Of a DNA stretch of 64,000 nucleotides, positions 9,221 through 55,949 are shown piece after piece (within the stretch, counting starts at the first letter, position 1; every line of letters starts with the position of its first letter). The notes below the pieces were generated by a model. The model was not told where the DNA came from and ran no database searches. It saw only the letters and a list, made by a program, of their open reading frames with translations. The position numbers were made by a program, and so were the translations under genes. The DNA lies in the IMG/VR virus record IMGVR_UViG_3300027792_000011; one strand, written 5' to 3'. Origin of the DNA: a virus.

Positions 9221-10441
9221 ATGATCGGAACCCCTGGGGCTGTATTTGATCCTTATGACGATGGGTTCGAGTCCCTTCAACGTATGATGCAGGGACGAAG
9301 TGTCCCTGACTTCATCAAGACGGCCTCGGTCCTAGATCAGGAGGATCTTCAGAGGCTTCCAGACCATGCCTTCGCGATGGTCGTGGTTGGTGATGGATAT
9401 AGTATGCGGAAGTATGCCTGCATTGATCCAGCACATGTGGCTGTCAATGTGATGTACTTTCTAGAGCACGCTGGTGATCTTCACGAAGGAGCGAGAGAGA
9501 AAGTAGCTCACAACCTTCTTCGAGCATGCAACCATTTCAATGTCACACCGCCGATTACCCTATCAAAAATGGCTGCAGGAAACAAAGTCCTGATCAAAAC
9601 TGATGGGACGAACATCACAGTCTCGAAACGTGAGAAGACTAGTGAGTTGAGTGGGACTTCGGTAATGCCTTACTCCGCTCGACCATCCCTTGCGAAGCTT
9701 TCAGGAGTTATTACTGATCCATATGTAACTCCAGGAGAACCTAATCCGAGAAGGGCGCAGCAGTACGATCCAGCTGTGTGTGCTCTCGACGATGGAACAC
9801 TTCCTCTCGCATCGTATGGTCAGGTAAAGGAGGCAATGGCCTTCTTCCATTCCTTCAACGGAGATATGCATCCAAGACAGCGACACGAGGTTTGCGTCAA
9901 GATCGCAACTCGTGCTGATGCGCTTGGCATTCCAGTTGACGATGTCATCAGGAAGTACGGTTCTCGTACCTTCGAGACCAGTGTTTTCTTGAAGTCGGCA
10001 GCATTGACCAGAAAGCAGATCTGGGCTGAGATGCGAAATGGGGAGGCTCCTCATCTGCTCGAGCAGCTTCTCGAAAAGCAGGCTAGTGCAGAGATAGCTC
10101 CAGAAGTCTTTGCCGAGGCTCTAGCGGAGCTTGATGTGACAACTGGTATTGATAGGTACTGGGATTCTTCAATACCTGATCCATGGTTCAGCACCTACGG
10201 TCATCACAAGCTAGCCGAGGCCGAAGAGTGGCGTTGGGTTCAGGGAACTGAGTACCTGACCAAAAACCAACTGCTCAACTTCATGAATAGTCAGCGTGGT
10301 AAGGAAGCGGTAACTAACGCTTTCAATGAGAAGATGGCAGAGGGTCTTCGGGACAAACCAACAGAGGTCTTCGACTCTCTCCCCATGGATACAAAACGCA
10401 CCATCGCTAGGATGGCGCAGCAACATGAATCAGGGCTATAG
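9221..10441 (+). CDS. putative head/virion protein with K-x-A sites
   Basis: SD GGAGG; IKTAS, SKMAA, VKIAT, LKSAA, EKQAS, HKLAE. Confidence 0.7.
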   Translation: MIGTPGAVFDPYDDGFESLQRMMQGRSVPDFIKTASVLDQEDLQRLPDHAFAMVVVGDGYSMRKYACIDPAHVAVNVMYFLEHAGDLHEGAREKVAHNLLRACNHFNVTPPITLSKMAAGNKVLIKTDGTNITVSKREKTSELSGTSVMPYSARPSLAKLSGVITDPYVTPGEPNPRRAQQYDPAVCALDDGTLPLASYGQVKEAMAFFHSFNGDMHPRQRHEVCVKIATRADALGIPVDDVIRKYGSRTFETSVFLKSAALTRKQIWAEMRNGEAPHLLEQLLEKQASAEIAPEVFAEALAELDVTTGIDRYWDSSIPDPWFSTYGHHKLAEAEEWRWVQGTEYLTKNQLLNFMNSQRGKEAVTNAFNEKMAEGLRDKPTEVFDSLPMDTKRTIARMAQQHESGL

Positions 10442-10478
10442 TAGATAAACCCGAGAGGAAAGGGTAGGAGGATCAGAA

Positions 10479-11372
10479 ATGAGCAGCAGGTCTTTTAGTT
10501 CAGAGAGGCCGGAGCATCCGCACCTTGTCCAGCCAGGAAAAGGTGGTGTGGGAGGAGAAGTTGGCGATCTTCGCAGGGATGTCGAGGACGCCTTCGTGGT
10601 GTTGGAAGCCGCAGTCGATGCCAAGGTGTCAGCGGCTCCAGTTCGCTTTGCGACCGCTGCCCCTCTTGGTGCCTGCACGGCAGCTGGAACTGGTGTTGGC
10701 AAGACGCTGACTCAGAATGCTGCGGCCATTGAGAACATCGATGGTACAGCTGTCCTGAAGGGCGATCGAATCCTGGTCAAGAATCAGGTGGTCGACAAGA
10801 ACAACGGTATCTACACCGTCACCACAGTCGGTACCGCTCTTGTGAAGCAGGTTCTGACACGAGCTGAAGACGCCGACAGCGATGCCGAAGTGAAATGCGG
10901 TCTCACCGTCAACGTCACCGCTGGATCAACAAATGCAGGAACCCGTTGGGTTCTCACGACTGCCAATCCGATCGTTCTCGACACCGATGCACTGACGTTC
11001 AGCGCAGAGGTTCCGAATATCCATCACACTCGACACGAGAATGGTGGAGCTGACGAGATCAGCGTGATTGGATTGTCCGGCCTGCTGGCAGACGGACAGA
11101 CGCCGCTTGCTCACGCCACTTCCCACTATCCAGGTGGAACGGATCCGGTGGCGAAGACTGGTAGAGCCACGGCCGTTGGTGCTGGTGATGTGGCTGTGGC
11201 GTTCGGTACGGCATTTGCGGATGCCAACTACACCGTGGCCATCACGTTCGAGGACACTGGTGGTGCCGCACTGGCTACCGGCTACATCAAAAACACCACG
11301 AAGCTGGCCGCTGGCTTCACCATCGTCGCTTCGGCTGCTGGAATCTTCCACTGGATCGCTATCCACGACTAG
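10479..11372 (+). CDS. fiber/decoration-like structural protein
   Basis: GDRILVKNQ....NGIY...LTRA.DAD fiber motif; two H..xH..GG.D repeats; C-terminal lectin-like beta domain (FGTAF...YTV...GFTI...HWIAI). Confidence 0.65.
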   Translation: MSSRSFSSERPEHPHLVQPGKGGVGGEVGDLRRDVEDAFVVLEAAVDAKVSAAPVRFATAAPLGACTAAGTGVGKTLTQNAAAIENIDGTAVLKGDRILVKNQVVDKNNGIYTVTTVGTALVKQVLTRAEDADSDAEVKCGLTVNVTAGSTNAGTRWVLTTANPIVLDTDALTFSAEVPNIHHTRHENGGADEISVIGLSGLLADGQTPLAHATSHYPGGTDPVAKTGRATAVGAGDVAVAFGTAFADANYTVAITFEDTGGAALATGYIKNTTKLAAGFTIVASAAGIFHWIAIHD

Positions 11373-11380
11373 GAGGTCCG

Positions 11381-12307
11381 GTGAGCGGTCATGAAGACAG
11401 GTTCATCGAGAGACTACAGAAGGTAGCAGGTTCTCCGGAGCTCCTGCCGCCACAAGAGGAAGAGGAGCAAGCTCCAGCCTCTGTGGAAACAGTTGCTCCG
11501 GAGGAACCTATTCCTCCTGTTGAAAAGCAGAGCTTCGTCCCGATCAGCACCAAGAACGTGTTCGGACACCACGATACTCACCCGCTCATACTCGATGCCA
11601 TCCTGCTAGACAAGTACGGCCCTATATGGCTCGATTGGGAGCCTGAAACGATCTGGTCAGAGATCAATGACGACTTCAAGCAAGTTGTCAGCGTTCACAA
11701 TAGGAACAAGATCCAAGCTGTAAGACTGTGCCATCTAGTAGATAGCCCATGGACGAACTGGGAAGTCTTTGTTCTAGTCGCGCAGGCATTCAACAATAAC
11801 GTTCCCAACTTCAGAACGCTTCAGCGTCCTACCATCGCTCAGATCACTAACGCAGCAACAATCATGAACAAGATCAAGAGCGAGAAAGAGGTCAAGTTCT
11901 CTGAAGAGGTATTCAAATTCATAGCTGCTTGCTTCCTGGATGAAGGCGTAGTGTACCTCCCGCACCCATTCCAGGATGGTCAGCGATGGTCCTCAGTTCC
12001 AAAGTACCGATGCTCGAAGTGCGGCAAGATCGACATTGATGACGGCAATGGGATGTGTGATAGCTGTGGTGCTCCTGATCAGTATCTTGCTAAAGAGTTG
12101 GAGCGGGACTATCGTACTGTAAAGGAAAGATACCAGATCATAGTAGTGGATCGTGAAAATAAGCCATCCGATCCGATCGAGCTGAATGAAACTCCAGAAG
12201 ATGTTCAGACTGCTAGGCTCCTAGTTGCTGATGAGTATACGAGAGATAGACAGCGGCAGCTCGAGGAGCAGATGAGGATACTGAGAGATGTCCGATCATA
12301 CGTATGA
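11381..12307 (+). CDS. hypothetical virion-region protein with Zn ribbon
   Basis: SD GGAGG; CSKC...CDSC; N-terminal LQKVAG. Confidence 0.7.
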   Translation: MSGHEDRFIERLQKVAGSPELLPPQEEEEQAPASVETVAPEEPIPPVEKQSFVPISTKNVFGHHDTHPLILDAILLDKYGPIWLDWEPETIWSEINDDFKQVVSVHNRNKIQAVRLCHLVDSPWTNWEVFVLVAQAFNNNVPNFRTLQRPTIAQITNAATIMNKIKSEKEVKFSEEVFKFIAACFLDEGVVYLPHPFQDGQRWSSVPKYRCSKCGKIDIDDGNGMCDSCGAPDQYLAKELERDYRTVKERYQIIVVDRENKPSDPIELNETPEDVQTARLLVADEYTRDRQRQLEEQMRILRDVRSYV

Positions 12308-13205
12308 CATGATCATGTCTGAGTCTATGCTCCATGAGCTTTACATGCTCAAGAAGCAAGCAGGAGTTTCGGCACGATGGGGCAATGTCATCGGTGCTGG
12401 ATTGGGGGCTATCGGTGGCGGGCTGCATGGAAGTAGAACGGCAGCACCAGGAGAAGAGACTGGTGGAGCGGTTCGAGGAGCTTTGCTTGGTGCCGGTGCT
12501 GGGGCTCTTGGTGGGCAATTCGCTACCAAAGCCGGACGCGGAGAAGCTCTCAGATTCGGACAGAGACAGCTTCATGGTATGACTGGCTACCTCCCCGGAA
12601 GGGGAATCCTTGGCGCTAAAGGTCCAGCACTGTCGCCAAAGGATAGGCTCAAAGCACTAGAGGGCATGGGATTTGAATTCCAGCATGGTACCAAGAAACA
12701 GTTACAGAAGCATATGACACAGGAAGTTGCTAAGGGTAAGATCACTAAGTATCTGCCACAAAACATTCAAAATTTCATGGCTTCTAGAAGTGCATCATCT
12801 GCTTTGGCTACTCGACAGGCCGCAGAAGAGGGTATGACTTCGATACCTGGCCTAGCTAGAGGTTATATGAGGGGTGGAGTCTCTGGAAAAGTAACACCAT
12901 GGCAGGCAACCAAGATGAACCTAAAAGCACCAGGACTAGCTATGGGTGTTGGGATACCTGCTGCAATGTCAGCACAGTCGATCAAAGAGTACAGAGAGAC
13001 AGGAGATAGACGGCAGCTTGCCTCAAATCTAGCTGGAAATGCCGGCTTTGCGCTAGGTGGAGCTCTTCCTATTACTGCTATGATGGGTCTTGGCGCAGCA
13101 GGTGGGGCAGCTGGGAGGCTGATAGGTCGTGGAGCTGAAGCGATAAGTCCATCACACGTTCCAGTACCTCCTGGTGGATATGCTGGCCAGGTAGCTCCTC
13201 GTTGA
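12288..13205 (+). CDS. Gly-zipper/membrane-active candidate cargo protein
   Basis: leader MLHELYMLKKQAG followed by GxxxG-rich hydrophobic segments. Confidence 0.65.
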   Translation: MSDHTYDMIMSESMLHELYMLKKQAGVSARWGNVIGAGLGAIGGGLHGSRTAAPGEETGGAVRGALLGAGAGALGGQFATKAGRGEALRFGQRQLHGMTGYLPGRGILGAKGPALSPKDRLKALEGMGFEFQHGTKKQLQKHMTQEVAKGKITKYLPQNIQNFMASRSASSALATRQAAEEGMTSIPGLARGYMRGGVSGKVTPWQATKMNLKAPGLAMGVGIPAAMSAQSIKEYRETGDRRQLASNLAGNAGFALGGALPITAMMGLGAAGGAAGRLIGRGAEAISPSHVPVPPGGYAGQVAPR

Positions 13206-13213
13206 GGTGATCA

Positions 13214-15124
13214 ATGTTTGATTTTGGCTATGGCGGTACCAGTCACTTTCAACCGGCGCATACCTACGGTCGTGTTAGAGGATCGTCAGTAACACAGGGT
13301 GTAGCCTACCCATCTCCGTTTTTTGATCTTGCACATACCTATCTCCCACCAACAGTCAAGCAGATGTTCAAATGGTGCAGGTACTATTACCTCACCCAAC
13401 CGCTCATAGCTGCTGTTGTGAACAAGATGGCGGAGTACCCCATAACTGATCTCGTGATCGATACGGACAACAAGGGTCTCCGCAATATGTGGGAGAAGTT
13501 CTTTGAGTCTGACATACAACTTCGTGCGAGACTGATCGACATAGGTCTTTACTTCTTTTGTTACGGTAATGTGCTTGCATCACTGATGCACCCATTCGTG
13601 AAGTGGCTGAAGTGCAAGTACTGCGGCCACACATTGATGGCGAAGAAGGCGACGTACAGGTTCAGATCGTATGAGTTCCACATGACTTGTGACAAGTGTC
13701 AGCAGACAGGTCATGCCCTAGTAGAAGATCAATACCTCCAGACGTCAGGTGGGACTAGGATCATTCTCTGGAACCCAGAAGACATAGACATCGTATTCAA
13801 TCCGATCACTCAGGATACGGTTTACTTCTACAGTCTTCCAATACAGACACTCAATGACATGGCTGTCGGGCGCAGAGAGGTCATAGAGCAACTTCCTCAG
13901 GTATTCATAGACGCAGCCAAGAAACGAAAGTCGATCACACTGAATAAGGACAACCTCTTTCATCTGAAGAGGTCCTCTGTTCTATCAGGTCCTAGAGATA
14001 CGGGTTGGGGAACGCCTCTAGTGCTTCCAGTTCTGAAGGACGTGTTCTACCTTCAGATCATGAAGAAGGCACAAGAGGCTATTCTCCTCGAGCGTATAGT
14101 TCCTCTGACTGTCATCTTCCCCCAGCAAGCAAGTGGCACGGCTGATCCGTATACCACGATCAATCTTGTGGACTGGAAAGACCACATCGCACAAGAGATT
14201 CAAAGATGGCGGCTGGATCGTAACTACATTCCAATCCTCCCACTTCCAATCGGCAATCAAGTCATCGGTGGCGATGGACGAGCGTTGCTCATGTCTCAAG
14301 AGATCAAGATCTGGAGTGATCAGATCATTGCCGGGATGGGTGTTCCGAACGAATTCATCTACGGCGGTCTCCAGTGGTCGGGATCAAACGTGTCCCTTCG
14401 CATGTTGGAGAATCAGTTCATGCGGTACCTGTCCGGGCTGTTGCTCTTCGTCAAAGACTTTCTGGTGAGGGGTATGGCTGCTCATATGGGCTGGCCGACA
14501 GTGGGTATCAGGTTCAAGCCATTCAAGATGGCTGACGATCTACAACGTAAGGCGTTCCTCTTCCAGCTCAATCAGGCTGGTAAGGTGAGCGACACGACAC
14601 TGATCAATGATACAGATCTGAATCCTGAAGAGGAGAACGAGCTGCTCCGTAAGGAGACCAAGACTCGTCTCGAATCTGTGAAAACTCAGCAGATCGCGGA
14701 GGCAGAGATCTCCGGCGAAGCTGGGGTGATCAATGCGAAGTACCAGGCTAAAGCCCAAACGATCATGATGCAGGAACAGCAACAGGCTGCAGCAGGTGCA
14801 CAGGGTACAGCCCCCGGTGAGCCTGGTGAGGATGTAGGGTCAGCTCCAGTTGCGCCGCCACAGGGACAGCAACCTAGTGGTCAAGAAGGCGGACAAGCCA
14901 CGCTAAATCCTCTACAGCAAGTAGTACAGCGTCTTCGCTCGTTGAGCCCTGAAGCACAACGTACTGTGCTAACAAGGATTGAGCAGAGTAACCCACAGCT
15001 AGCACGTCAGCTTCAAGCTCAATTCAATCAAGGAGGGGGAGTTGACCCATCGCCTAATCCAGCAGGTCAGCCTCTTCCTACGCAGCTCCCTCCACGTAGA
15101 GGAACAGAGTCTGCGATGATCTAG
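13214..15124 (+). CDS. portal protein
   Basis: YYY...PLI..VVNKMAEYP, HLKR......GWG.P, IIAGMGVP.EFI.GG...S portal-like motifs; Zn-ribbon insertion (CKYC..CDKC); Q/P-rich tail. Confidence 0.75.
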   Translation: MFDFGYGGTSHFQPAHTYGRVRGSSVTQGVAYPSPFFDLAHTYLPPTVKQMFKWCRYYYLTQPLIAAVVNKMAEYPITDLVIDTDNKGLRNMWEKFFESDIQLRARLIDIGLYFFCYGNVLASLMHPFVKWLKCKYCGHTLMAKKATYRFRSYEFHMTCDKCQQTGHALVEDQYLQTSGGTRIILWNPEDIDIVFNPITQDTVYFYSLPIQTLNDMAVGRREVIEQLPQVFIDAAKKRKSITLNKDNLFHLKRSSVLSGPRDTGWGTPLVLPVLKDVFYLQIMKKAQEAILLERIVPLTVIFPQQASGTADPYTTINLVDWKDHIAQEIQRWRLDRNYIPILPLPIGNQVIGGDGRALLMSQEIKIWSDQIIAGMGVPNEFIYGGLQWSGSNVSLRMLENQFMRYLSGLLLFVKDFLVRGMAAHMGWPTVGIRFKPFKMADDLQRKAFLFQLNQAGKVSDTTLINDTDLNPEEENELLRKETKTRLESVKTQQIAEAEISGEAGVINAKYQAKAQTIMMQEQQQAAAGAQGTAPGEPGEDVGSAPVAPPQGQQPSGQEGGQATLNPLQQVVQRLRSLSPEAQRTVLTRIEQSNPQLARQLQAQFNQGGGVDPSPNPAGQPLPTQLPPRRGTESAMI

Positions 15125-15170
15125 TAAAAAAGAAAAGGGTGGTGCCTCTCCAAATTCTGAGGCACCACCC
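15125..15170 (-). terminator. intrinsic terminator
   Basis: GGGTGGTGCCTC/GAGGCACCACCC 12-bp stem followed by a T-rich tract on the minus strand. Confidence 0.8.
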
Positions 15171-15208
15171 GTTTACTTCAACCATTTACCTATCGGCTGA
15201 CTACTCGA

Positions 15209-15301: not shown

Positions 15302-15335
15302 ACTTACTCCCTTCCTCCTGTTCCCGGAGAGTGAC

Positions 15336-15455: not shown

Positions 15456-15499
15456 ATGCACCTCTCCCTAAAGCGGTAAATGGTTTCCCGCTCAATGAT

Positions 15500-15526: not shown

Positions 15527-15613
15527 GCAGGTGATTGATAGAGTGAAAGTCAACAAGAACAAGCACCTCTTAGAGGCTAAGATCCTTGATGACTAGAGGT
15601 GATGGAGGAGCAA

Positions 15614-18600
15614 GTGGCTAGACTGGATCCAGCTGAAGGCTTTGAAATACTGAAGAACCGGGTAAAAGAAGCTGTAGCAGAATCATTCCCCCACGAAGGT
15701 GCCAAGAACATACTCGAGCTCGAGAGTATCGACGTACCAGACAAGCTCAGTGTCAGTAACGTAACAGATCAGAAGTCGGCTAAGATGAATGGACGTACGT
15801 GGGGCGTTCCAGTTCATGCAACGCTAGTTCTGAAGGACAAAAAGACAGACAAGATTCTAGATCGAAGCAAAATCAAGGTAGCTACACTACCCAAGATCAC
15901 TAATCGATATTCTTACATCGTTGACGGCTCAGAGTATCAGATAGACAACCAATGGCGTCTCAAGCCAGGTGTCTACACAAAGATACAGCAGAATGGAGAG
16001 CTGGATTCGTTCTTCAACATCCAAGGTCAGCCCCTACACATAGGATTCGATCCCAAGGAGAGATCGTTTGTGTTCAAGCATGGAGGCGCCCAGCCCCCAC
16101 TTTATCCGATCATGAGAGCACTTGGGCATAGTGATGGTGATCTGGAGAAGGCTTGGGGTAAGGACATACTCAATGCCAACATGACCGACTCGCGTGGCAA
16201 GTTACTGAACGTAGAGAAGCACGCTATCAACTTTGCCAATAGACTTGATCCAGAATCCGAGGTTGATTCGCTCGACAAAGCGTCCGAGGTCATCAAGCAG
16301 AAGTTTGGGGAGTCCAAGTTGCACCCCGATGTGACGAGTAGGACACTTGGTAAAGCAATAGATCGTATTACTCCAGATGCGGTACTCAGATCATCCCAGC
16401 GTCTTCTTGGTGTTGCCCGTGGTACTGAGAAACCAGACGTTCGTGACTCACTCATGTACAAAGAATTCCTTAGCGCGGAAGACTTTGTTGGTGAGAGGAT
16501 CAGGCAGAGTGCTCCAGTAATACAAAGAAGGATCGGCAACAATATTGATAGGCGCGATAAGATTCGTGACATCGTAGGCATGGATGTATTCCAGCGTCCG
16601 ATCAAAGAGTTCTTTTCCAAGGTGTCTCTCGCCTCTACACCAGAACAAACCAATCCACTCAAGATGATCTCCGGGCAGTTGCGCACTACTATTGCCGGTG
16701 AGGGTGGGGTCAAGGATGCTAACAGGATCACAGAAGATGCAAAGCTCATAGATCCTAGTCATTTCGGGGTGTTAGATCCTCTACACACTCCGGAGTCGTC
16801 CAAGACCGGCGTAAATTTACAGCTCTCTCTTGGTGCACGAAAGGTTGGGACCAGGGTAGAGATACCACTCATCAGCGTGAAGACTGGAAAAGTAGCATAC
16901 CTAGATCCTGGAAAGATCAACGATTCGATAGTGGCACTACCAGACTCTGTGAAGAGAATTGGTGATCGATTCGTACCAAAAGAGGGAACAACAGTTCTAG
17001 TTAGCGCAGTTGGCAACGAGATCAAACATGTGCCAATGAAGGATGTGGAGTATGTGGTTCCAAGATCCAGTCAGATGTTTTCTATTGCGACCAACATGGT
17101 TCCATTCATTTCCAGCGACTCTCCCAACCGGGCGACAATGGCTGGTAGACACATGGAGCAGGCGATCCCACTCAAGGACCCTGAGCCGCCATTGGTCCAG
17201 TCCGTTCTTGGTAAGAAAAGCTTCGACGAGCTGGTAGGATCGTATGCTTCTCATTCTGCTCCAATCAACGGCAAGATCACGCAGGTTGGCAAGGATGTGA
17301 TCCACATTCTAGGAGAGGACAAGAAATCGTACGCCGTCAACGTATACAATCACTACCCTGCCAATGACAAGAAGGGCATGATCCATAGTACTCCGCTAGT
17401 AAAAGCTGGAGACCGAGTAACAAAAGGTCAAGTGATCGCAGATACCAACTTCACCAAGAATGGTATCTACGCACCAGGAAAGAATCTGGAAGTAGCTTAC
17501 ATGCCGTGGCGTGGCTACAACTTTGAAGATGGTGTGGTGATCAGCGAATCAGCATCTCAGAAGCTTACCAGTGAGCATCTTCTCAAACCCGGTCTGTCTA
17601 CCAAGGAAGCAAAGCTCGTAAGCCCAAAGAAGTATCAAGCGTACTACCAGGATCGACTCAACAAGGAGCAAGCAGCAAAGCTGGATGAAGAAGGTGTGGT
17701 CAAACCGGGCATGAAGGTGAAGCCTGGTGATACTTTGATCGCTGCACTACAGGAGCAACAGCTCACTACGGAAGAGCAGAAGCTAAAGCTACTGCATAAG
17801 AGTCTGGTGAGGCCGTACAAGGACAAGTCAGTGACATGGGACGAGGACGTAGAGGGGGAAGTGGTCGAGGTAAACAAGAGGGGGAGCAGAGTGGACGTCC
17901 ACGTCAAGACAGCGGAACCGATGGACGTAGGAGACAAGATCGTAGGACGCCACGGCAACAAGGGGATCGTGACCCTGATCCTACCAGACCACGAGATGCC
18001 GAAGACGAAGGACGGGAGACCGATAGAGGTGATAATGAATCCGATCGGGACTCCGGGACGTATGAACATTGGACAAGTTCTCGAGACCGCAGCAGCTAAG
18101 ATCGCTAGGAAGACGGGACAGACATTCAAAGTCACCAACTTTGAGATCGAAAACAATCTCGAGCATGTAGAGAACGAGCTGAAGAAGCACGGACTCACGG
18201 ACAAAGAGACCATTATCGATCCGAAGACCGGAGTTGAGATACCAGGTATTCAAGTTGGTCCGCAGTACATCCTCAAGATGGAACACCAGGTTGGGAAGAA
18301 GATGGCTGCTCGATCGAGAGACGCCTACGATCGTAATCTCGTACCAAAGGGTGGCGGTCCTCACGGTGCGCAAGCACTTGGATCGCTAGGTAACTACTCC
18401 ATGTTGGCGCATGGATCGAAGGCGAATTTGCGTGAGATGATCACGTACAAAAGCGACAAATCCCAGGGCGGAGACAATGACGAGTTGTGGACTGCACTCC
18501 AGGCTGGAGAGATGCTGCCGCCTCCAAGAACGACATTTGCCTATGAGAAGTTCAACTCCTATCTGAAAGCGATGGGAGTGAACACAGAGAAAGACGGCAA

Positions 18601-22530: not shown

Positions 22531-22533
22531 TAC

Positions 22534-23721: not shown

Positions 23722-24008
23722 TCATGTCATTGAATGCTACCAAACTGGAGAGAAGAATCATTAGCATCTTCCGGGCGACCGTACGTTCGCTGTATCCTGA
23801 TGTGGTGAGAAGCGTAACGGTTCGTGAGATTCCAAAAACTGATGGAACCATGGACCACGAGGTCACGGAGAATCGTGGCCCACTAGAAATAGAAGAGAAG
23901 CACCTTATCCCCCTGGCTCGGGCAATAGCCCAAGCTGTGGTAGAAGAGATCAAGTCGGGAGCTGAAGTGAATGACGCTGCAGCAGCCCAGACCTGGAGGA
24001 TCAAATGA
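23718..24008 (+). CDS. hypothetical protein downstream of spike
   Basis: coupled ORF; LARAIAQAVVEEIKSGAEV. Confidence 0.65.
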   Translation: MIMSLNATKLERRIISIFRATVRSLYPDVVRSVTVREIPKTDGTMDHEVTENRGPLEIEEKHLIPLARAIAQAVVEEIKSGAEVNDAAAAQTWRIK

Positions 24009-48902: not shown

Positions 48903-49492
48903 TCAATTTTGCATCATTTAGTGACGAGCTGCAGAAGATTGCTGCTGAGCCTATTGTGGCTGATCCGATCAATAAAGAAGAACTAGTACGTCACTATCAG
49001 CAACTCGGCCGTATAGGTGGTGGAGTGGGTGGTGCTGCTCTTGGTGGTGGCGGGCTTGGACTACTCGGATCTAGAATTGCTGGAATACCTGGTGCCGTAG
49101 TTGGTGGCACAGTTGGTGCACTTGGTGGCGGTTACCTTGGTGGGAAGTACGTTGGTAGAGCTGCCAAAGGAATAGCTATGGGAACGCCTGAAGATGTATT
49201 CCAGGCACGTGCAAATCTTGATCATGCGGAGGACTTGTACGAACGTGGAGAGTTGGGAGATAAGGATCGTCTGCGAGCCACATTGATCGCGTCCAACGCC
49301 GCCAGAAAGGCTCACGGAAGAAAACCTCTAGAGTCTGACTTTCTATCTCGTGATCGACCAGGATCTTACGTAGTGGAAGGTAGAGATGTCGCGGTCAATC
49401 CTTATGGTATTTCTTACGCAGATCCATATGGATATAGACCGGGACCGGCACAAGTGACTTCTAGATATCGAAGAGTTCCTATGAGCGAGTAA
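48899..49492 (+). CDS. tagged Gly-zipper candidate cargo protein
   Basis: N-terminal FSDELQKIAA; GGAALGGGGLGLLG...GGTVGALGGG. Confidence 0.72.
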   Translation: MINFASFSDELQKIAAEPIVADPINKEELVRHYQQLGRIGGGVGGAALGGGGLGLLGSRIAGIPGAVVGGTVGALGGGYLGGKYVGRAAKGIAMGTPEDVFQARANLDHAEDLYERGELGDKDRLRATLIASNAARKAHGRKPLESDFLSRDRPGSYVVEGRDVAVNPYGISYADPYGYRPGPAQVTSRYRRVPMSE

Positions 49493-49905
49493 TGTACGAT
49501 CTTGTATCCATAGCTGCCTTCCGCGATGAGATGACCAAACTGGCGCAGGAGTCTGCTCAGCGCATTGATCCGCAGGCTATTGAGCTGCAACAAGCTCTAG
49601 ATCAGGAGCAGGGCCGGAGAACGATGAACCGGCAAGCTCTAGGGCAGTTCTTGAAGGACACTGCTATCGTTGCTGGTGGTGTTGGGGCTGGATATGGGCT
49701 AGGTCGGTTGTCAGTGGATGCTCTGACAAAGCTACGAGGGCCAGTATCAAGTCCATGGCGTCAAATGCTGTATGCAACATTTCCGGTAGTGGCAGGTGGT
49801 GCTGCTCTAGCTGTTCGTGGGAAGATGCGAGAAGAGCAAGATCGAAGGCTGGAAGAAGCATATCAGAGGGGTGTTCAGTCCGCAGGTAGTAGGGTGGGCA
49901 GGTGA
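49492..49905 (+). CDS. tagged two-TM candidate cargo protein
   Basis: N-terminal FRDEMTKLAQ; two hydrophobic Gly-rich helices. Confidence 0.72.
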   Translation: MYDLVSIAAFRDEMTKLAQESAQRIDPQAIELQQALDQEQGRRTMNRQALGQFLKDTAIVAGGVGAGYGLGRLSVDALTKLRGPVSSPWRQMLYATFPVVAGGAALAVRGKMREEQDRRLEEAYQRGVQSAGSRVGR

Positions 49906-50747: not shown

Positions 50748-50752
50748 AGAAC

Positions 50753-53700
50753 ATGGCACAAGCAATCCCCGAACTTCCGCAGCCTGGTGTGCAGGTCGTC
50801 CAGGAGTACACGGATCAGACCCCTGTTATCGTGATCCCGACGCTGGTTCCGTGCGTGGTCGGGGTAGCGAAGGAGATCCGCGAGCTCTACAACTCGGACG
50901 GCACTCTCAACACAGATATCATTGTGGATGGTCCAGCACTTGCTGTGGCCCCCAACGATCAGACTAGCTACACGGTAATGGACGCGCTCACGCTCCAGCT
51001 TCGGGTCAATGGCGGGGTTCTCCAGACCTTTACCATGCCCACTGGTGCTACGCCGCCAACTACCATGACGGCACAAGAGGTGGCTATCGCCATCAACGGT
51101 GCAGCGCCTCCTCCGATCAACTTCGCAGCCTATGTGCTAGCGGAAGACTCGGATGGCGATGGTGTGGACGACAAGTGGTACCTCGAGCTCCGCTCCACCG
51201 CCACCGGAGAAGACACTTCCATCCAGATCGTTGGTGGGACTGCTATCACCAAGTTCGGTTGGGGTGAGGGGCAGACCTTCTACGGGCTTGGTGCCTACAT
51301 CCAAGATAGCGTGTACCTGAAGCAGTCCAGCTTCCCGGATCCCAGAGGCAACCTCGATGAGCTGAACATCGATGAGGACTCGATCCGAGTGTTCGTGGAC
51401 CTCGGTACTGCTCCAAGGGAATTCCTGCGAACAGAGTCGTTCCTTCGGCTGGGGAGCTACTACAACGTAGTTGGACCAGTGTACGGTGTTACACCAGTTG
51501 ATGATGGGGATGGAGACACTCTGACCCCGTACGTCGACTTCAAGAGCACTGGAGCATCGATCCCAAACTTCCAAGCTCTTGCTACTTCAGCCGCACTGAC
51601 TGGCATTGTCGATCTATCGACATTCCAGCCTCTGCATGGCAAGGAGCTGATCCTCCAAATTGACGGTGGTGGAAAGCAGACCATCAAGTTCTACGGTCAA
51701 CCGATCGTGTCCACCGACTCAACGGCTGGTGGTGGTTGGGACTTCACTGCCCCAGCTGGTGCGATCAATGGGCAGACGTTGAACCTTCTGGTCAACGGTG
51801 TGTCGCTTGTTGTGACGTTCGTTGCAGCTGCGTCCATAGCGGATGTCGTAACTCAGATCAATGCGGTTTCAGTGGCTACCTTCGGCGTCAACATCGCCTA
51901 TCGGTGCAATGCCGCTGGTGATTCAGCTCCTGCTGGTGTGTACGTGGGATTGTTCTATGGCGCCCAACCGGCTGTGAACATCGTCGCCAACACCGAGGTG
52001 CAGGTAGCTGCCAACGTTTCTACGGCCCACACCGAGATCATTGGTGATGCTCTAGCCCATACTCAGTTGCTCGGCAAGAATGCTGGAGCGGAGCCGGTAG
52101 ATGATGTTGTCGAACAGATCAACAACGTCTACCCATCTGGTGTTGCTTCGTGGAGCACCAACTTTCTCAAGCTGCAGAGCCTGACCTCTGGGTACGAATC
52201 GAAGATCGAGATCGATTCAAACAGCACGTCGCTTGGATCACCGCAACCTACCCCAACCACCAATCTTGGTATCAATGTTGGTCTCAACGGCTACACCTAC
52301 CATGGAAATCCGTTCCCAGTTCGTGTAGGGGATGCCATCTACGGTGATGGCGCCTACCTCGGCAACGTCAGTGAGATTCATCCCATGGCAACTCAGGGAC
52401 GGATCAAGCTGGATCGAGAAGTAGCTGTTTCTGGAAGGTGGCAGTACTGGTACTTCCTCGCTAAGAACCTGGATACCGTACTGAGCAGCCAGTGGGGCGT
52501 GACCGTTCCAACTCCGGACATCTACCTGGATACGCAGGGTAATGTGCACCTCAAGCACGACTTCTTGAGGGACATCTACGGACAACCTGTTTCGACAGCG
52601 GTAGTCATGCTCTACGTGATGTATACCGCTGTTCGACTGGATGTCACGGCAGCCTCTGCAGATCCAGCACTCTTGACGTTCAACAACATCAACGAGCTCG
52701 AGGCCGCGATGAGTCCGGTCACTCCGGAGAATCCGCTGGCCTACGGTGTCTTCTGTGCCCTTGGCAACTCGAATGGTGTGTCGGTCTCCTGCATCGGTGT
52801 GAGCGAGACCTTGGCCGACAAACCGTACGGAACGTTGGCAGCATTCCAGGAGGCGTTTGACTTCCTGCAGAGTTCGGAAGTGTACGGCATCGCCACCCTC
52901 ACCAGCGATCTCGACATCGCCATGGCGGCTCAGCAGCATGTCAATACTATGAGCGAGCCGACCATGAAGGGTGAGCGTGTTGCAGTCGTTCACCTAGGCC
53001 GGCCGACTCGGAAGGTTGATACCATCGTTGCTTCTGGCAATGATGGTGACACGATCGTCGGCACGCCAACCTATCTCGATACTGGCGTTCCGAATCTGTC
53101 ACAGTTGCTCCTGGATGCTGGTCTCAATCCAGCAACCTTTGGGATCACGGACGGTGTATTCCTCGATCTATCGGCTGATAGCTACAACTGGAACGTGATC
53201 GGACCGGTAGTTGGCGGTACGAGACTTCGGGTCAACACTATCTTCGCTCCGGGGCAGAATGACGATGGCTTCTACCACGATACCATTGGAGACTTCCCGA
53301 CTCTGATCAGTGGTAGCTTCTCGGTGAAGATCAGAGGAGCTGCTGTTGCTTCCAAGGACGAGGAAGTAGAGACCGTCTATGCGCGAGGTCAGGGATTCAG
53401 CGATAGGCGCGTATGGATGATGCAGCTCGATCAGCTCAAAGCGACCATTGATGGTATCGAGCAGCTGGTGCCTGGGTTCTACATGAACGCGGCCAAGGTT
53501 GGTATGGTTGGTGGGCAGCAGCCCTCTCAGCCCTTCACCAATCTTCCGATCGCAGTGTTCACCGGAGTCACTGGGACCAATGATAGGTACAACACCACGC
53601 AGCTCAATCAGATGGCTGCAGGTGGTGCTGACCTTACTGTGCAAGAGAACAAGAACGGTCCAATCTGGTCGCGCATGCAGGTCACCACCAAGCTGACGAC

Positions 53701-53995
53701 CATCGAACAACGAGAGCAGTCGATCGTGAGAGCGGTTGACTACTGCGCGAAGTTCTACCGAATGAGCCTCAAGGTCTACATCGGTAGATACAACATCACG
53801 CAAGGATTCCTCGACACTCTCAGCACAGTGGCCCAAGGCCTGGGGCGATGGCTAGAGGAAGAGGGAAAAGTAGTGTCGGGTGCAGAGCTGAACAATCTGA
53901 TCCAGGATGAGAACAATCCTGATACCGTTCTCGTTCAGGTCAGTATTGATCCACTATACCCGTGCAACTATATTGTGATCACGATCATTGTCTGA
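50753..53995 (+). CDS. contractile tail sheath protein (large, with inserted domains)
   Basis: N-terminal PGVQVVQE; C-terminal REQSIVRAVD...YIGRYNI...P.YPCNYIVITI. Confidence 0.88.
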   Translation: MAQAIPELPQPGVQVVQEYTDQTPVIVIPTLVPCVVGVAKEIRELYNSDGTLNTDIIVDGPALAVAPNDQTSYTVMDALTLQLRVNGGVLQTFTMPTGATPPTTMTAQEVAIAINGAAPPPINFAAYVLAEDSDGDGVDDKWYLELRSTATGEDTSIQIVGGTAITKFGWGEGQTFYGLGAYIQDSVYLKQSSFPDPRGNLDELNIDEDSIRVFVDLGTAPREFLRTESFLRLGSYYNVVGPVYGVTPVDDGDGDTLTPYVDFKSTGASIPNFQALATSAALTGIVDLSTFQPLHGKELILQIDGGGKQTIKFYGQPIVSTDSTAGGGWDFTAPAGAINGQTLNLLVNGVSLVVTFVAAASIADVVTQINAVSVATFGVNIAYRCNAAGDSAPAGVYVGLFYGAQPAVNIVANTEVQVAANVSTAHTEIIGDALAHTQLLGKNAGAEPVDDVVEQINNVYPSGVASWSTNFLKLQSLTSGYESKIEIDSNSTSLGSPQPTPTTNLGINVGLNGYTYHGNPFPVRVGDAIYGDGAYLGNVSEIHPMATQGRIKLDREVAVSGRWQYWYFLAKNLDTVLSSQWGVTVPTPDIYLDTQGNVHLKHDFLRDIYGQPVSTAVVMLYVMYTAVRLDVTAASADPALLTFNNINELEAAMSPVTPENPLAYGVFCALGNSNGVSVSCIGVSETLADKPYGTLAAFQEAFDFLQSSEVYGIATLTSDLDIAMAAQQHVNTMSEPTMKGERVAVVHLGRPTRKVDTIVASGNDGDTIVGTPTYLDTGVPNLSQLLLDAGLNPATFGITDGVFLDLSADSYNWNVIGPVVGGTRLRVNTIFAPGQNDDGFYHDTIGDFPTLISGSFSVKIRGAAVASKDEEVETVYARGQGFSDRRVWMMQLDQLKATIDGIEQLVPGFYMNAAKVGMVGGQQPSQPFTNLPIAVFTGVTGTNDRYNTTQLNQMAAGGADLTVQENKNGPIWSRMQVTTKLTTIEQREQSIVRAVDYCAKFYRMSLKVYIGRYNITQGFLDTLSTVAQGLGRWLEEEGKVVSGAELNNLIQDENNPDTVLVQVSIDPLYPCNYIVITIIV

Positions 53996-54020
53996 TCTAG
54001 GTCAGTTGTAGGAGGACAAA

Positions 54021-54773
54021 ATGCCAGGTCCCTTCTCAGGTTGGAATCCCCTCAACCACTATGTCCAGAATGGCATGGTTGACGGGAAGTTTGTTTCGGG
54101 CGGCCTTACTCTCATCGCTGCTGGTCCTCCCCGGCTATCACAGCTTGGGACAGGAGCTGGCGGGATGTCCATGGCCGCTTCCGCTCGTGATAGCGACATT
54201 GTCTATCCGATCGGTGTGACCCAGAACATCAATCACTCTCAGAACAAGACCTTCATGCGTATCTGGGAGCTTGGCTCAGAGAGATCATACTTCATCGGCG
54301 GCAGAACAGTGGGGCAGCTCGCTCTTTCGAGAGTGTACTATCACGGTGCATCTCTCCTGCGTGTGTTGTACGCATACTACCAGGACATGCTGCCTGGACC
54401 GGTTCAGGTACCTTGGATGTTCCCCAATCAGGGAGCATACAACATGGTAAACCAGCACGACGTGATCGTGCCTCCTGGATACGAGAACCTCTTTCTCAAC
54501 CTGGCGTCTGATCTGTTCAATCAACCCATTGGTCTCTTGGTCTACATGAGAGACTCGAATCTCAATACGATAGGTGCTGTATACCTCGAGGCGTGCTACG
54601 CTCCGAATCACACTTGGGCAACAGACGCTCAAGGAACCATCGTTCAGGAGACGGTGGCGATCCAGTACGAGCGAGTGATCCCGGTCAACGTAGCAGCTGT
54701 GTCGCTGGTCACTGGACTATCAGAAGCTGTTTCCGGTATCTCTAGCGGAGCGATGCCGTCTATCGCAGCGTAG
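54021..54773 (+). CDS. tail tube protein
   Basis: follows sheath; IGVTQNINHSQ...IWELGS...G.L.LSRV. Confidence 0.75.
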   Translation: MPGPFSGWNPLNHYVQNGMVDGKFVSGGLTLIAAGPPRLSQLGTGAGGMSMAASARDSDIVYPIGVTQNINHSQNKTFMRIWELGSERSYFIGGRTVGQLALSRVYYHGASLLRVLYAYYQDMLPGPVQVPWMFPNQGAYNMVNQHDVIVPPGYENLFLNLASDLFNQPIGLLVYMRDSNLNTIGAVYLEACYAPNHTWATDAQGTIVQETVAIQYERVIPVNVAAVSLVTGLSEAVSGISSGAMPSIAA

Positions 54774-54785
54774 GAAGGTTGACCT

Positions 54786-55949
54786 ATGGCAGTGTACTCT
54801 ACCAGAGCTGAGTGGCTCGAAGCACAGTCTCGAGATCACTTCCACAAGTTGGGATCGTTGACGATCAAGACGACTGATGCCCACTTCATGGGCAAGGTAG
54901 CAGCTCATGAGTTCAGCCCAGAGATCACAAAGACTGCCAGCTTCAATGCCATTCTTCTGGACATCATAGAGCGCAGCAAGCCAAATGGACTGATCAAATC
55001 GGCAGCTCTGCACGCAACTCTCAACGATGAGGGCATCTTGAAAGTTGCTTCGGAGGATAGCTACTGGACCGGCGCACAGGCAGTACATCACCTTGATTTC
55101 CTTTCAGGTGTCTACGATATCAATCCGGATATGGCCTGGCGTTTTGCTGCGAATGCGGGGCTTGCCAAGGAAGCAGGCATTGGAAACTTCGTTGGTGCTG
55201 CAGGCCGACTTTTGGGCAGAGGAGCTAAAGCTGGCGGAGGAGCACTACAAGCTGGAAGGCAGGCAGTAGGTCGAACAGCTAGTGGTGTGTCAAATTGGTG
55301 GAAAGGGACTGGTACCAAGTTCCTAGGTGATACAAGCCATTTGGGAACCAAGCCGTTGGGCCAAGCCTGGTCGCCGCTACCAGCGGGACAGCATGCGATC
55401 AATCCGAATACTCTAGCAAGCAATCTTGCGAACAAGAATCCGTTTCAGCGGGCTGCTCAGCGAGTTAGCAATTGGTGGTCAGGTTCAGTTCACGGAACAG
55501 CTGGAATGCAGGGTCCTGGAATCAATCCATTGCGTAGAGCGGGTCAGAATATTGCCTATCAAGCCGAGCGTGGTTTTGAAGCAGGAAAGGCCGGAGCCCC
55601 CATTCTTCAGCGAGCTCCTAAGCCCGCAGCTGCAGCTGCAGAGCACGCCGCTCCAGCAGCTAGTCAGGGAGCAGGTGCAGCAGGCCATGCAGTGCCGGCC
55701 GCTCCTGAAGCAGCTGCGGGAGCTGCCGGTCAAGTAGCACCAAGACAAAGTGCTGGAAGAGAAGCCTGGGAGACCACCAAGGCAATTGGCCGGGGAGCAC
55801 GTAACCTGGGCTATGCAGGTATCATAGGCGGAACTGTTCTTGGAGCAGCTGGACTATCAGCAGCAGGCAATCTAGTTCGTCCCAACCCCTCACCATACCA
55901 GTATGGAATGGGCGGCCCAACTCCCTGGATGTCCCCACAGCAGATGTAG
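54786..55949 (+). CDS. K-x-A-rich leader plus Gly/Ala-rich amphipathic candidate cargo
   Basis: GKVAA, TKTAS, IKSAA, LKVAS, AKEAG in the first ~130 aa; repeated VSNWW; C-terminal TM-like helix. Confidence 0.7.
   Translation: MAVYSTRAEWLEAQSRDHFHKLGSLTIKTTDAHFMGKVAAHEFSPEITKTASFNAILLDIIERSKPNGLIKSAALHATLNDEGILKVASEDSYWTGAQAVHHLDFLSGVYDINPDMAWRFAANAGLAKEAGIGNFVGAAGRLLGRGAKAGGGALQAGRQAVGRTASGVSNWWKGTGTKFLGDTSHLGTKPLGQAWSPLPAGQHAINPNTLASNLANKNPFQRAAQRVSNWWSGSVHGTAGMQGPGINPLRRAGQNIAYQAERGFEAGKAGAPILQRAPKPAAAAAEHAAPAASQGAGAAGHAVPAAPEAAAGAAGQVAPRQSAGREAWETTKAIGRGARNLGYAGIIGGTVLGAAGLSAAGNLVRPNPSPYQYGMGGPTPWMSPQQM

Follow-up and report, generated by a model that had tools for sequence, protein, structure and literature searches.

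Among the closest known systems, phage T4 uses gp21, a 212-aa protease that cuts L/I-x-E sites and is encoded just 5' of scaffold-type and capsid genes; the unrelated proteins IPI-III and Alt carry a short N-terminal leader (CTS) ending in the cut motif, and site-rich core/scaffold protein is cut to small peptides (PMC9026906, PMC5694885). In phiKZ and SPN3US, N-terminal propeptides, some with multiple motifs, occur on the capsid protein and the portal as well as on many head and ejection proteins (PMC10052503). The proteases of these large myoviruses, phiKZ gp175 (S/A/G-x-E) and SPN3US gp245 (AXE), cut after Glu. Herpesvirus assemblins (UL26 / UL80a family) cut V/L/I-x-A then S at their release and maturation sites. 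In cultured phages, homologues of the protease domain described below are gp19 of Bacillus phage G (27% identity), for which an independent annotation gives head maturation protease (PMC12484599), and gp222 of Salmonella phage Arash (37% identity), annotated merely as 'structural protein'; the phage G and Arash papers describe no cleavage motif.

The window analysed here is a 64,000-nucleotide part of a complete 174-kb phage genome. Genes were called as the longest ORF, so that N-terminal residue numbers may be off, and are named below by their start coordinate (Table 1). About 17-20 head proteins of this phage carry a short Lys-x-Ala (K-x-A) motif, at which a T4-type head-maturation protease encoded by the phage itself most likely cuts. 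Measured against composition-preserving shuffles, K-x-A occurs 139 times in the 9-56 kb region of the window (88.7 expected, z 5.35) and ranks first of about 400 a-x-b pairs, with none in excess in the remainder of the genome (145 vs 145.8 expected). The arrangements A.K, KA, AK, K..A, K...A, R.A, K.S, K.G, K.V and K.L are all flat. Since solely the ordered K-x-A is enriched, the signal cannot be put down to a local abundance of Lys and Ala or to helix periodicity. The excess in head proteins is real and far above chance.

The original prediction had called the motif pervasive in 19 named proteins. All 19 contain it, and the counts made by eye are correct: the 39306 protein (475 aa) has 12, the sheath (1080 aa) has 1, and 54786 has 5 within its first 130 aa. 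For 18 of the 19 proteins, 92 sites were found against 49.9 expected; tail-like proteins are depleted (3 vs 7.7). Taken protein by protein, the enrichment is significant in just a handful, and many others have a single N-terminal site. The strongest are 9203 (11 vs 2.2 expected, p 0.0005, median spacing 31 aa; its start had earlier been placed at 9221), 24005 (14 vs 4.4, p 0.0005), for which no family or Atlas lead was found, 34394 (10 vs 2.3, p 0.0005, median spacing 27 aa) and 39306 (12 vs 5.7, p 0.0065). Sites at aa 4-40 are present in 19 of 39 region proteins (6.9 expected) and in 25 of 176 proteins outside the region (21.1 expected). In a polyvalent protein encoded outside the window, K-x-A lies in linkers and stays outside the helicase and NUDIX folds. 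Among the context and control genes, the portal (4 vs 2.2 expected, 1 strict) and the RNA polymerase fusion (19, none strict) are consistent with chance, and the terminase has 3 sites, none strict, conserved in 0 of 14 orthologue comparisons.

The fuller motif is hydrophobic-x-K-x-A then S/A/G/Q. In its strict form, [LIMFV]-x-K-x-A-[SAGQ], which was defined post hoc on this genome after inspection of the data, it is found 43 times in the region (6.3 expected) and 15 times elsewhere in the genome (10.0 expected). The recognition site most likely has L/M/I/F/V at P5, often E/Q/V/T at P4, Lys at P3, any residue at P2, Ala at P1 and S/A/G/Q at P1'. Nine proteins without other similarity share a tag F-x-x-E-L-x-K-x-A, placed at or near the N-terminus in eight; the pattern F..E[LMI].K.A occurs 9 times against 0.06 expected. 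By analogy with the T4 CTS, the leader F-x-(D/x)-E-(L/M/I)-x-K-x-A probably also serves as a capsid-targeting address. In sequence it is unrelated to the T4 CTS. The P5 preference, the shared tag and the clade-wide spread of the code had escaped the original prediction.

Table 1. Coordinates of the genes, predicted sites and control features in the window.
Feature	Position	Strand	Basis or content
412-aa site-rich protein	9203..10441	+	11 K-x-A
Two overlapping genes, 11381-12307 and 12288-13205	11381..13205	+	One N-terminal strict site each
Portal; context, not clearly substrate	13214..15124	+	Orthologue of Arash gp204 portal
Fused RNA polymerase beta-beta'; context and control	15599..21775	+	Pfam Rpb2/Rpb1 domains
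691-aa site-rich protein	24005..26080	+	14 K-x-A
155-aa ORF	27585..28052	+	K-T-A then S, aa 69-71; tag GFSDELE-KIA, aa 79-87
132-aa protein	28090..28488	+	Leader ...GFSDELQ-KIA then V, aa 10-18
Terminase large subunit; negative control	30182..31999	+	phrog_675
302-aa site-rich protein, predicted core/scaffold-type, chopped up	34394..35302	+	K-x-A count, conservation
Two small genes, 35299-35652 and 35652-36122, 5' of protease	35299..36122	+	N-terminal sites
Prohead protease fusion, 644 aa	36129..38063	+	AF2 model, fold matches
K32-T-A34 then A, predicted N-terminal autoprocessing site	36222..36230	+	Conservation
His122-His123 codons, candidate catalytic histidine	36492..36497	+	Conservation, spacing
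Ser179 codon (V-S-M-G-C), predicted nucleophile	36663..36665	+	Conservation
K273-L-A275 then A, predicted release site at protease-domain end	36945..36953	+	Conservation
K357-E-A359 site, disordered linker	37197..37205	+	22/32 homologues; pLDDT below 50
K556-T-A558 then S, C-terminal domain	37794..37802	+	16/32 homologues
285-aa protein directly 3' of protease gene	38136..38993	+	6 K-x-A, 4 in strict context
475-aa Ala-rich protein, predicted scaffold-like substrate	39306..40733	+	12 K-x-A
125-aa gene	40742..41119	+	K-L-A then S, aa 22-24, plus two sites
Major capsid protein	41666..42796	+	phrog_2522 major head protein
Capsid protein predicted site K24-V-A26 then Q	41735-41743	+	Conserved
618-aa Lys/Ala-rich protein (DUF5661)	44694..46550	+	N-terminal site cluster, aa 10, 41, 49, 55
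487-aa protein	46555..48018	+	Sites at aa 9, 15, 30
197-aa protein	48899..49492	+	Leader MINFASFSDELQ-KIA then A
137-aa protein	49492..49905	+	Leader ...AAFRDEMT-KLA then Q
Tail sheath 50753-53995 and tube 54021-54773; negative controls	50753..54773	+	phrog_279; Arash gp236, gp237 orthologues
387-aa ORF	54786..55949	+	Leader MGKVAAHEFSPEIT-KTA then S

The enrichment replicates in relatives. The strict motif occurs 10-25 times in each of the metagenomic relatives L003-L007 (1.3-3.4 expected) and 23 times in the Arash head module (2.8 expected), with 16 in the rest of Arash (14.7 expected). An unbiased a-x-b scan places K-x-A first in four of the five metagenomic relatives and in Vibrio phage D69, second in phage G and in the shorter Arash locus, and fourth in the annotation-defined Arash head module. 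Conservation in homologues had been set beforehand as a test, and K-x-A sites are conserved in 47.7% of orthologue comparisons, whereas the controls K-x-Z and Z-x-A give 22.2% and 18.3%, and all other pairs together 23.5%.

The original prediction also took the 36129 product for the prohead protease and the serine of VSMGC for its active residue, and both points find support. In the AF2 model (mean pLDDT 75) the product consists of a protease domain (about aa 35-262), a disordered linker (aa 263-401) and a helical C-terminal domain (aa 402-644). In structure comparisons T4 gp21 scores highest (5jbl; Z 14.2, rmsd 2.9 Å, 151/165 residues), with the herpesvirus assemblins next (Z 5.4-7.7). The assignment rests on predicted structure, since the domain has no Pfam or PHROG match and hhalign yields nothing significant against T4 gp21; the sole local match aligns GEYPDVS179 with T4 GWIPGVS140, the serine motif G-x-x-P-x-V-S being present in both. 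Within a family of 2183 representative clusters, Ser179 is kept in 133 of 135 representatives and in all 32 homologues, and inteins are inserted at residue 181/182 (VSMG|C) in 11 of 15 intein-bearing homologues. His122 and His123 are conserved in 132 and 135 of 136 representatives, and lie 56-57 residues from Ser179, compared with 55 from His85 to Ser140 in T4.

K-x-A sites bracket the protease domain and fill the linker, family-wide with a hydrophobic P5 and S/G/A at P1'. At K32, K-x-A is present in 31 of 32 homologues and 6 of 6 orthologues, Arash included, and occupies the exact column in 82 of 119 representatives, with many more offset by 1-2 residues. The K273 site, within the low-pLDDT segment 263-276, is kept in 29 of 32 homologues, 6 of 6 orthologues and 71 of 109 representatives. 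Cleavage at K556 is less certain because that site sits in a confident helix.

As in T4, the protease gene lies just 5' of scaffold-type and capsid genes, the rule has a P3-x-P1 shape, and unrelated proteins bear a short leader ending in the motif. The differences are P1 Ala instead of Glu (the residue after which the phiKZ and SPN3US enzymes, whose substrates' N-terminal propeptides are a parallel, also cut), P3 Lys instead of Leu/Ile, an extra hydrophobic P5, and a 644-aa fusion in place of a 212-aa protein. The assemblins share the protease-linker-C-terminal domain layout and the predicted cut after Ala before Ser/Ala, and the conserved domain-end site resembles their release site. Their P3 is however hydrophobic, the 36129 structure is much closer to T4 gp21, and only about half of the 36129 homologues keep a counterpart of their maturation site, near the C-terminus.

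Among the predicted substrates, the major capsid protein has E20, G21, K22, K24 and A26 invariant in 6 orthologues, and those of Arash and Vibrio D69 have ...K-E-A then G at aa 27-29. Several sites of 34394 are conserved, and its Arash orthologue gp220 has 10 K-x-A (3.0 expected). Sites 25, 34 and 77 of 38136 are kept in 3-4 of 4 orthologues. The gene at 40742, absent from the ORF caller's output, has syntenic 116-121-aa counterparts in relatives. Of the proteins with leaders, 28090 is unrelated to the other tagged proteins except for the tag, and the K69 site of 27585 is kept in 3 of 3 orthologues. The 44694 and 46555 proteins have total K-x-A counts not above composition (9 vs 7.8 and 6 vs 6.0). 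The single N-terminal strict sites of 11381 and 12288 are K14-V-A then G and K23-Q-A then G, and the N-terminal sites of the two small genes are K19-T-A then D (35299) and K13-C-A then G (35652, kept in 2 of 3 orthologues). The true start of 54786 is probably Met35 (nt 54888), in keeping with a database gene call of 353 aa; its five early sites are all strict, K71-x-A73 and K86-V-A88 then S are invariant in homologues, and its leader has a counterpart at the N-terminal end of P0127. This ORF sits 3' of the tail tube gene, in the tail block, where a prohead protease is not normally expected.

We consider it likely that the N-terminal domain of the 36129 product is the prohead maturation protease of this phage and that K-x-A forms the centre of the site this enzyme recognises; the original proposal that this protein cuts such sites in head proteins is supported, as an inference. 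By analogy with T4, phiKZ/SPN3US and herpesviruses, the prohead would take in the protease fusion together with the core/scaffold-type proteins 34394, 38136, 39306 and 40742, probably also 9203 and 24005, and cargo proteins with an N-terminal leader. The protease would cut after Ala, Ser179 serving as nucleophile and either His122 or His123 as base, and would release itself at A34 and A275. It would remove 26 residues from the major capsid protein and leaders of 10-40 residues from about a dozen proteins, and would chop the site-rich proteins to pieces of ~20-50 residues, able to exit the shell ahead of DNA packaging.

It is unlikely, though the best of the alternatives, that K-x-A is not cut and works as a docking or assembly signal, through which the protease fusion, the scaffold or the portal recruits proteins to the prohead. 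Statistical and evolutionary evidence cannot tell binding from cutting, and an address function is clearly conceivable for the shared leader. Virion proteomics of Arash, the only such data for the clade, gave 100% trypsin coverage of the predicted substrates gp221, gp223 and gp224, so uncut molecules were present in that preparation. It came from a single short sucrose gradient and also held many replication enzymes, and the full coverage therefore counts only weakly against cutting. An address would be needed once per protein and not 10-14 times at about 30-residue spacing; the placement of sites around the protease domain and throughout its linker is that of autoprocessing sites, and the small P1 and P1' residues fit the rule of the structurally related assemblins. 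In the same Arash preparation, gp206, the RNA polymerase orthologue, gave the most spectra of all proteins, and the polymerase subunits there may parallel the virion-packaged RNA polymerase of phiKZ/SPN3US.

Less probable still is cutting by another enzyme, either a host protease or an unrecognised phage one. The role of 36129 is deduced from its fold, and the relatives L005 and L006 carry Peptidase_C39 genes 5' of terminase. C39 peptidases, however, cut after Gly-Gly; no C39, S78 or ClpP family match and no other recognisable capsid protease family was found on the present phage contig; and motif sites stand on both sides of the 36129 protease domain. The motif is retained in phages of hosts as unlike as Salmonella and Vibrio and in phages from metagenomes, which favours an enzyme carried by the phage. 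Hardly credible, finally, is the reading that the enrichment has no specific function and follows from composition, secondary structure, repeats or common descent of the proteins: several proteins are Ala- and Lys-rich and the strict motif is post hoc, but this reading is already largely refuted by shuffles that keep composition, flat alternative arrangements, tagged proteins unrelated outside the tag, sites conserved twice as often as control tripeptides, and replication in six independent genomes in head modules only.

The preferred reading remains cutting by the phage's own protease. Head processing of the gp21 type is already known; what would be new here is the proposed Lys-x-Ala cutting rule. 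In line with the original remark on Lys-P3 specificity, no K-x-A prohead-protease motif was found described in the phage literature searched. The head modules of phage G and Arash are enriched as well, and the K-x-A code is common to a large phage group, most of it uncultured, to which Salmonella phage Arash belongs.

The window corresponds to bases 1717-65716 of contig C1, found within a 3.8-Mb draft bin. C1 is 173,992 bp long, has the same ~55 bases repeated at both ends and a GC content of 51%, as compared to about 60% in the other large contigs of the bin. Because of the end repeat and the deviating GC, C1 is a complete, circularly closed phage genome binned with a bacterium; as far as the contig shows, an integrated prophage state is not indicated. 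Within the window lie the head module and a portion of the tail module (see the table). Genes were called as the longest non-overlapping ORFs, so the start codons are approximate. The closest cultured relatives, Salmonella phage Arash, Vibrio phages D69, D148 and D181, and Bacillus phage G (one domain only), are all distant, and a megablast search of phage records with the protease-scaffold region gave no match. The gene order terminase, 34394, 35299, 35652, protease (36129), 38136, 39306, 40742, 41168, capsid protein is kept in five metagenomic relatives (loci L003-L007) and in Arash. The protease gene thus sits in the head module, beside the scaffold and major capsid genes. A Peptidase_C39 domain occurs in relatives (L005:978-1799; L006:1-1211) in the region equivalent to that of the GNAT acetyltransferase gene, once fused to GNAT. 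Another relative carries an IS605 OrfB/TnpB (Cas12f-like) gene (L004:2547-3758) inserted directly upstream of the terminase gene.

Features of the window and predicted protease substrates (proteins are named by their start coordinate)
Feature	Window position (nt)	Strand	Remark
Group 1 substrates, site-rich	9203, 24005, 34394, 38136, 39306, 40742	+	near the protease gene and ahead of the portal
Group 2 substrates	11381, 12288, 35299, 35652, 41666 (capsid protein), 44694, 46555	+	single site lying 10-40 residues after the start
Group 3 substrates	27585, 28090, 48899, 49492, 49902, 54786	+	tag F-x-x-E-(L/M/I)-x-K-x-A
Portal	13214	+	orthologue of Arash gp204
Fused RNA polymerase beta-beta'	15599-21775	+	2058 aa; Rpb2 and Rpb1 domains
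GNAT acetyltransferase	21763-22530	+	amid structural genes
Terminase large subunit	30182	+	
Prohead protease fusion	36129-38063	+	644 aa
Major capsid protein	41666	+	
Tail sheath	50753	+	
Tail tube	54021	+	
Lys-rich protein	58904-59794	+	296 aa; 14.5% Lys

The original prediction had singled out Lys-x-Ala (K-x-A) as a recurrent motif of the head-region proteins, and all the K-x-A counts given there hold on recount. Counted against shuffles preserving the composition of each protein, no gapped residue pair exceeds expectation as strongly as K-x-A, with 159 occurrences in the whole window vs. 112.1 expected. Of these, 139 fall in the structural region (window 9-56 kb) vs. 88.7 expected (z 5.35, rank 1), and the remaining 40,000 residues of the phage genome have 145 vs. 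145.8. The motif is depleted in the recognised tail proteins (3 vs. 7.7 expected) and stays at chance level in the terminase as well as in the RNA polymerase fusion. The proteins 9203, 24005, 34394 and 39306 are significant individually. The claimed enrichment of the head region thus withstands the control for composition. A local richness in Lys and Ala, or helical periodicity, could be proposed as its cause. Thirteen arrangements were tested (K.A, A.K, KA, AK, K..A, A..K, K...A, A...K, R.A, K.S, K.G, K.V and K.L), and the sole one to depart from expectation is K.A, solely within the structural region; these causes are therefore rejected.

The structural-region sites share a context not seen around K-x-A elsewhere. 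L, M, I or F stands two residues ahead of the Lys in 48% of them; E, V, T or Q stands directly ahead of the Lys, and S or A (also G or Q) follows the Ala. Among the sites with a hydrophobic residue at P5, S, A, G or Q is next after the Ala in 43 of 70. The resulting strict motif, [LIMFV]-x-K-x-A-[SAGQ], is found 43 times in the region vs. 6.3 expected, and 15 times vs. 10.0 elsewhere. Since this pattern was written after inspecting the present genome, it was tried on DNA that had played no part in its definition. In the head-module strand of the five metagenomic relatives, whose proteases are 43-65% identical to 36129, the observed/expected counts are 13/2.3, 10/1.3, 22/3.4, 25/2.9 and 10/2.0, and on the opposite strand the motif is essentially absent. 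For the head module of Arash, from portal to capsid protein, the counts are 23/2.8 vs. 16/14.7 in the rest of Arash. In an unbiased pair scan, K-x-A tops the ranking for four of the five relatives and for Vibrio phage D69; in Arash it comes fourth in the annotation-defined head module and second in the shorter locus L001. In the head module of phage G (L012, phage G 5122-29592) K-x-A takes second place, and for this reason this 500-kb phage may follow the rule as well. The portal encoded there, gp14, carries F-Q-M-A-K-Q-A followed by A at residues 14-21; gp19 of the same phage carries L-V-K-T-A followed by A, and next K-I-A followed by P, all before the protease domain.

In orthologue alignments, a K-x-A of this phage has a K-x-A counterpart in 47.7% of comparisons; control pairs from the same proteins reach 22.2% (K-x-other), 18.3% (other-x-A) and 23.5% (all remaining pairs). 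The sites are therefore conserved in homologues well beyond these controls, in line with the original prediction. Position is also biased: K-x-A lies within residues 4-40 in 19 of the 39 proteins of the region (6.9 expected) vs. 25 of 176 elsewhere (21.1 expected), and 17 of the 43 strict sites fall in the first fifth of the protein. The capsid protein leader is conserved up to E20-G-K-E-K24-V-A26, and the capsid proteins of Arash and D69 have K-E-A followed by G at residues 27-29. Modelled with AlphaFold from six orthologues, the capsid protein reached low confidence (mean pLDDT 31.8).

Some proteins with K-x-A were rejected as substrates. Neither the terminase nor the RNA polymerase fusion has strict sites, and the sites they do have are not conserved, the three of the terminase in none of 14 comparisons. 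Protein 58904, with KAAK/KTAK-type low complexity, is likewise set aside, since the motif context is missing around its 10 K-x-A. It is basic-looking and possibly DNA-binding. The RNA polymerase fusion gene adjoins the portal gene, and its Arash orthologue, gp206, is the protein with the most spectra in particle preparations, which suggests that the polymerase is packaged in the virion.

The enzyme proposed to read the motif is a relative of known prohead proteases at the level of fold, not of sequence, and does not belong to the curated Pfam families Peptidase_S77 and Peptidase_S78. Protein 36129 gave no match at E <= 0.01 in Pfam or PHROG and none by sequence among PDB chains, and PF04586 was not detected in the genome. 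Its own family is very large and metagenomic (931 matches in one search, 2183 representative clusters in another). An AlphaFold model built from 32 homologues has a confident N-domain (residues 1-262, pLDDT mostly 80-93), continues into a disordered linker spanning residues 263-401, and ends in a C-terminal domain that is helical. In VIA-align, model residues 1-262 superpose on T4 gp21 (5jbl_A) with Z 14.2 and rmsd 2.9 Å over 151/165 residues; the herpesvirus proteases are the next structural group (Z 5.4-7.7). The Foldseek probability is 1.00, and many of the matching viral models (BFVD) are annotated as prohead serine proteases. Judged by the model, the N-domain has the protease fold of T4 gp21, HK97 gp4 and herpes assemblin. 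Phage G gp19, homologous to this domain, was independently annotated as a head maturation protease (PMC12484599). No C39, S78 or ClpP protease was detectable on the phage contig.

The serine of V-S-M-G-C, pointed out in the original prediction, is Ser179. Among 50%-identity representatives it is kept in 133 of 135, and two adjacent histidines are retained about as often, His122 (132 of 136) and His123 (135 of 136); the histidine precedes the serine and both are conserved across the family. The His-to-Ser spacing is 56-57 residues vs. 55 in T4, where Ser140 and His85 form the catalytic pair. An hhalign comparison of the family alignment with T4 gp21 was not significant; its one local match, 14 residues around the serine, aligns G-E-Y-P-D-V-S179 with G-W-I-P-G-V-S140 of T4. 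Many homologues contain inteins with Hint and LAGLIDADG domains (P0023, P0024, P0032, P0033 and others), and some representatives have two or three insertions and reach 1691 aa. Of 15 homologues checked, 11 have the intein at residue 181/182 (V-S-M-G|C) and two at the invariant Asn74. Inteins favour catalytic centres, and the position at V-S-M-G|C fits this preference. In a subgroup of protease fusions (e.g., P0061-P0073), a Pfam PF18823 (InPase) domain follows the protease domain.

The protease domain is itself flanked by K-x-A sites. K32-T-A34, before the domain, is K-x-A in 31 of 32 homologues, and K273-L-A275, in a low-confidence segment at the domain end, in 29 of 32; both are K-x-A in all six orthologues including Arash. 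Among 50%-identity representatives the exact column holds K-x-A in 82 of 119 (K32) and 71 of 109 (K273), with many exceptions shifted by 1-2 residues, and the sites have L/F/M/I at P5 and S/G/A at P1'. Variants of the second site have K/H/Y at P3 and A/S/G at P1, and such sequence variation suggests that the rule has drifted somewhat across the family. Two more K-x-A sites lie in the disordered linker. By analogy with T4 gp21 and herpes assemblin, this layout is the one expected of autoprocessing sites that would release the protease domain.

The strict sites fall into three groups of proteins. If all sites of group 1 are assumed to be cut, the median fragment is 23-31 residues, small fragments that match the fate of the T4 scaffold and core proteins. 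Pfam and PHROG scans of most of the site-rich proteins returned no family, and the ESM Atlas gave no usable lead for 24005 and 39306. Group 3 shares the tag F-x-x-E-(L/M/I)-x-K-x-A, also carried by three further proteins of the genome outside the window, one of them sigma-like. In the genome, the tag F..E[LMI].K.A is found 9 times vs. 0.06 expected, and eight of the nine are at or near the N-terminus: seven at residues 7-19, and that of 54786 at residues 9-17 when counted from Met35 (nt 54888), the true start indicated by a database gene call and a distant homologue. The exception is 27585, with its tag at residues 79-87. In 49902 the site is followed by Pro and may be unused.

Paralogy of the tagged proteins could explain a shared leader. 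With 49902 left out and the leaders removed, however, the mature parts of eight of the nine proteins have no detectable mutual similarity (best E 0.23), and this explanation is therefore rejected. The same dissimilarity argues that the tag is a portable signal like the capsid targeting sequence (CTS) of T4: a short N-terminal leader that occurs on proteins otherwise unrelated, with the protease motif at its end. Similar tags are present in relatives. The leader here (...F-S-D-E-L-Q-K-I-A) is not similar in sequence to the T4 CTS (MKTYQEFIAE), and is an analogue, not a homologue. Searches with 48899 and 54786 found homologues in only 2-3 relatives each; two later sites of 54786 are invariant among its own homologues. 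The gene of 54786 follows the tube gene, a location that a head protease would not be expected to reach; the product may be a head protein encoded at that place, or the motif may serve a second purpose.

Outside the window, a polyvalent protein of 1560 aa (L021; G000:C1:132178-136860) combines a SNF2-type helicase with NUDIX and LigD-type phosphoesterase domains. Its K-x-A sites are confined to the N-terminal 357 residues and the linkers after 934; residues 358-934, the stretch with the helicase and NUDIX domains, have none. The Arash orthologues of two K-x-A proteins from outside the window, this helicase and the tagged sigma-like protein, were detected in particle preparations; that of the helicase part, gp217, is encoded in the head module.

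The Arash study reported 100% coverage for some predicted substrates, so uncut copies were present in the sample. The particles had been prepared by one short sucrose gradient and pelleting, digested with trypsin only, and reported as protein-level lists that include ligase, ribonucleotide reductase and other replication enzymes. Given this purification and these enzymes, the sample probably held proheads and free protein, and the full coverage is no test of the cleavage hypothesis. Coverage of the capsid protein (87%) and the protease (85%) is compatible with lost leaders and is no evidence for their loss. Since trypsin cuts within the motif, after Lys, standard tryptic searches would miss the predicted mature ends.

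Known prohead proteases cleave either after Glu, as in T4, phiKZ and SPN3US, or at a small number of idiosyncratic sites. The T4 enzyme follows the rule L/I-x-E, and herpes assemblin V/L/I-x-A followed by S. For the phiKZ and SPN3US proteases the rule is S/A/G-x-E or AXE (PMC10052503). The system described here is of the T4 type in fold, gene position and predicted logic (a P3-x-P1 rule, autoprocessing, a chopped scaffold and leader-tagged cargo), but its proposed K-x-A rule is unlike that of every characterised phage enzyme known to us or found, T4, phiKZ and SPN3US all cutting after Glu. The small residues predicted at P1 and P1', with Ala last in the motif and S/A/G/Q next in the same 43 of 70 sites, would fit the assemblin type, but the residue two places before the Ala is Lys instead of a hydrophobic one. 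Our literature search, which reached a minority of subscription journals, found nothing relevant on a K-x-A prohead motif; this agrees with the suggestion that a Lys-P3 rule is new to characterised phages, and a prior description is possible. Taken together, the head-specific enrichment, its replication, the site conservation and the protease fold make the assignment of K-x-A to the 36129 protease, proposed originally, a well-controlled inference, and we consider it likely that K-x-A is the recognition motif. That cleavage would occur after the Ala, as predicted from sequence, is put forward with less confidence.

More tentatively, and a little short of an even chance in our estimation, a T4-fold head protease with a Lys-P3/Ala-P1 rule and a portable leader of ~10-18 residues may jointly define the capsid-loaded proteins in phages of 170-220 kb that form a large group, uncultured for the most part. 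The protease family counts >2000 representative clusters and includes those of Arash, Vibrio phages D69, D148 and D181, and perhaps Bacillus phage G. The cargo would include the sigma-like factor and the helicase-Nudix-phosphoesterase polyprotein, the latter split into its individual enzymes and probably delivered along with the DNA. Protease processing of head proteins and targeting leaders are well-established mechanisms, and so the present findings extend a known theme and do not found one. They should be of interest to specialists in phage assembly and annotators of large uncultured phages, and two cultured systems, Arash on Salmonella Typhimurium and D69 on Vibrio, are open to direct test. 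If true, a clean Lys-x-Ala rule shared throughout the clade by an enzyme of T4 fold would amount to a new class of specificity, nearer to the herpesvirus Ala/Ser rule, and the leader would be a capsid-cargo address orthogonal to that of T4. For the group as a whole, the proteins packaged and ejected could then be read from sequence, and mature ends, scaffold-type proteins and likely capsid cargo would become predictable for hundreds of uncultured large phages without head annotation.
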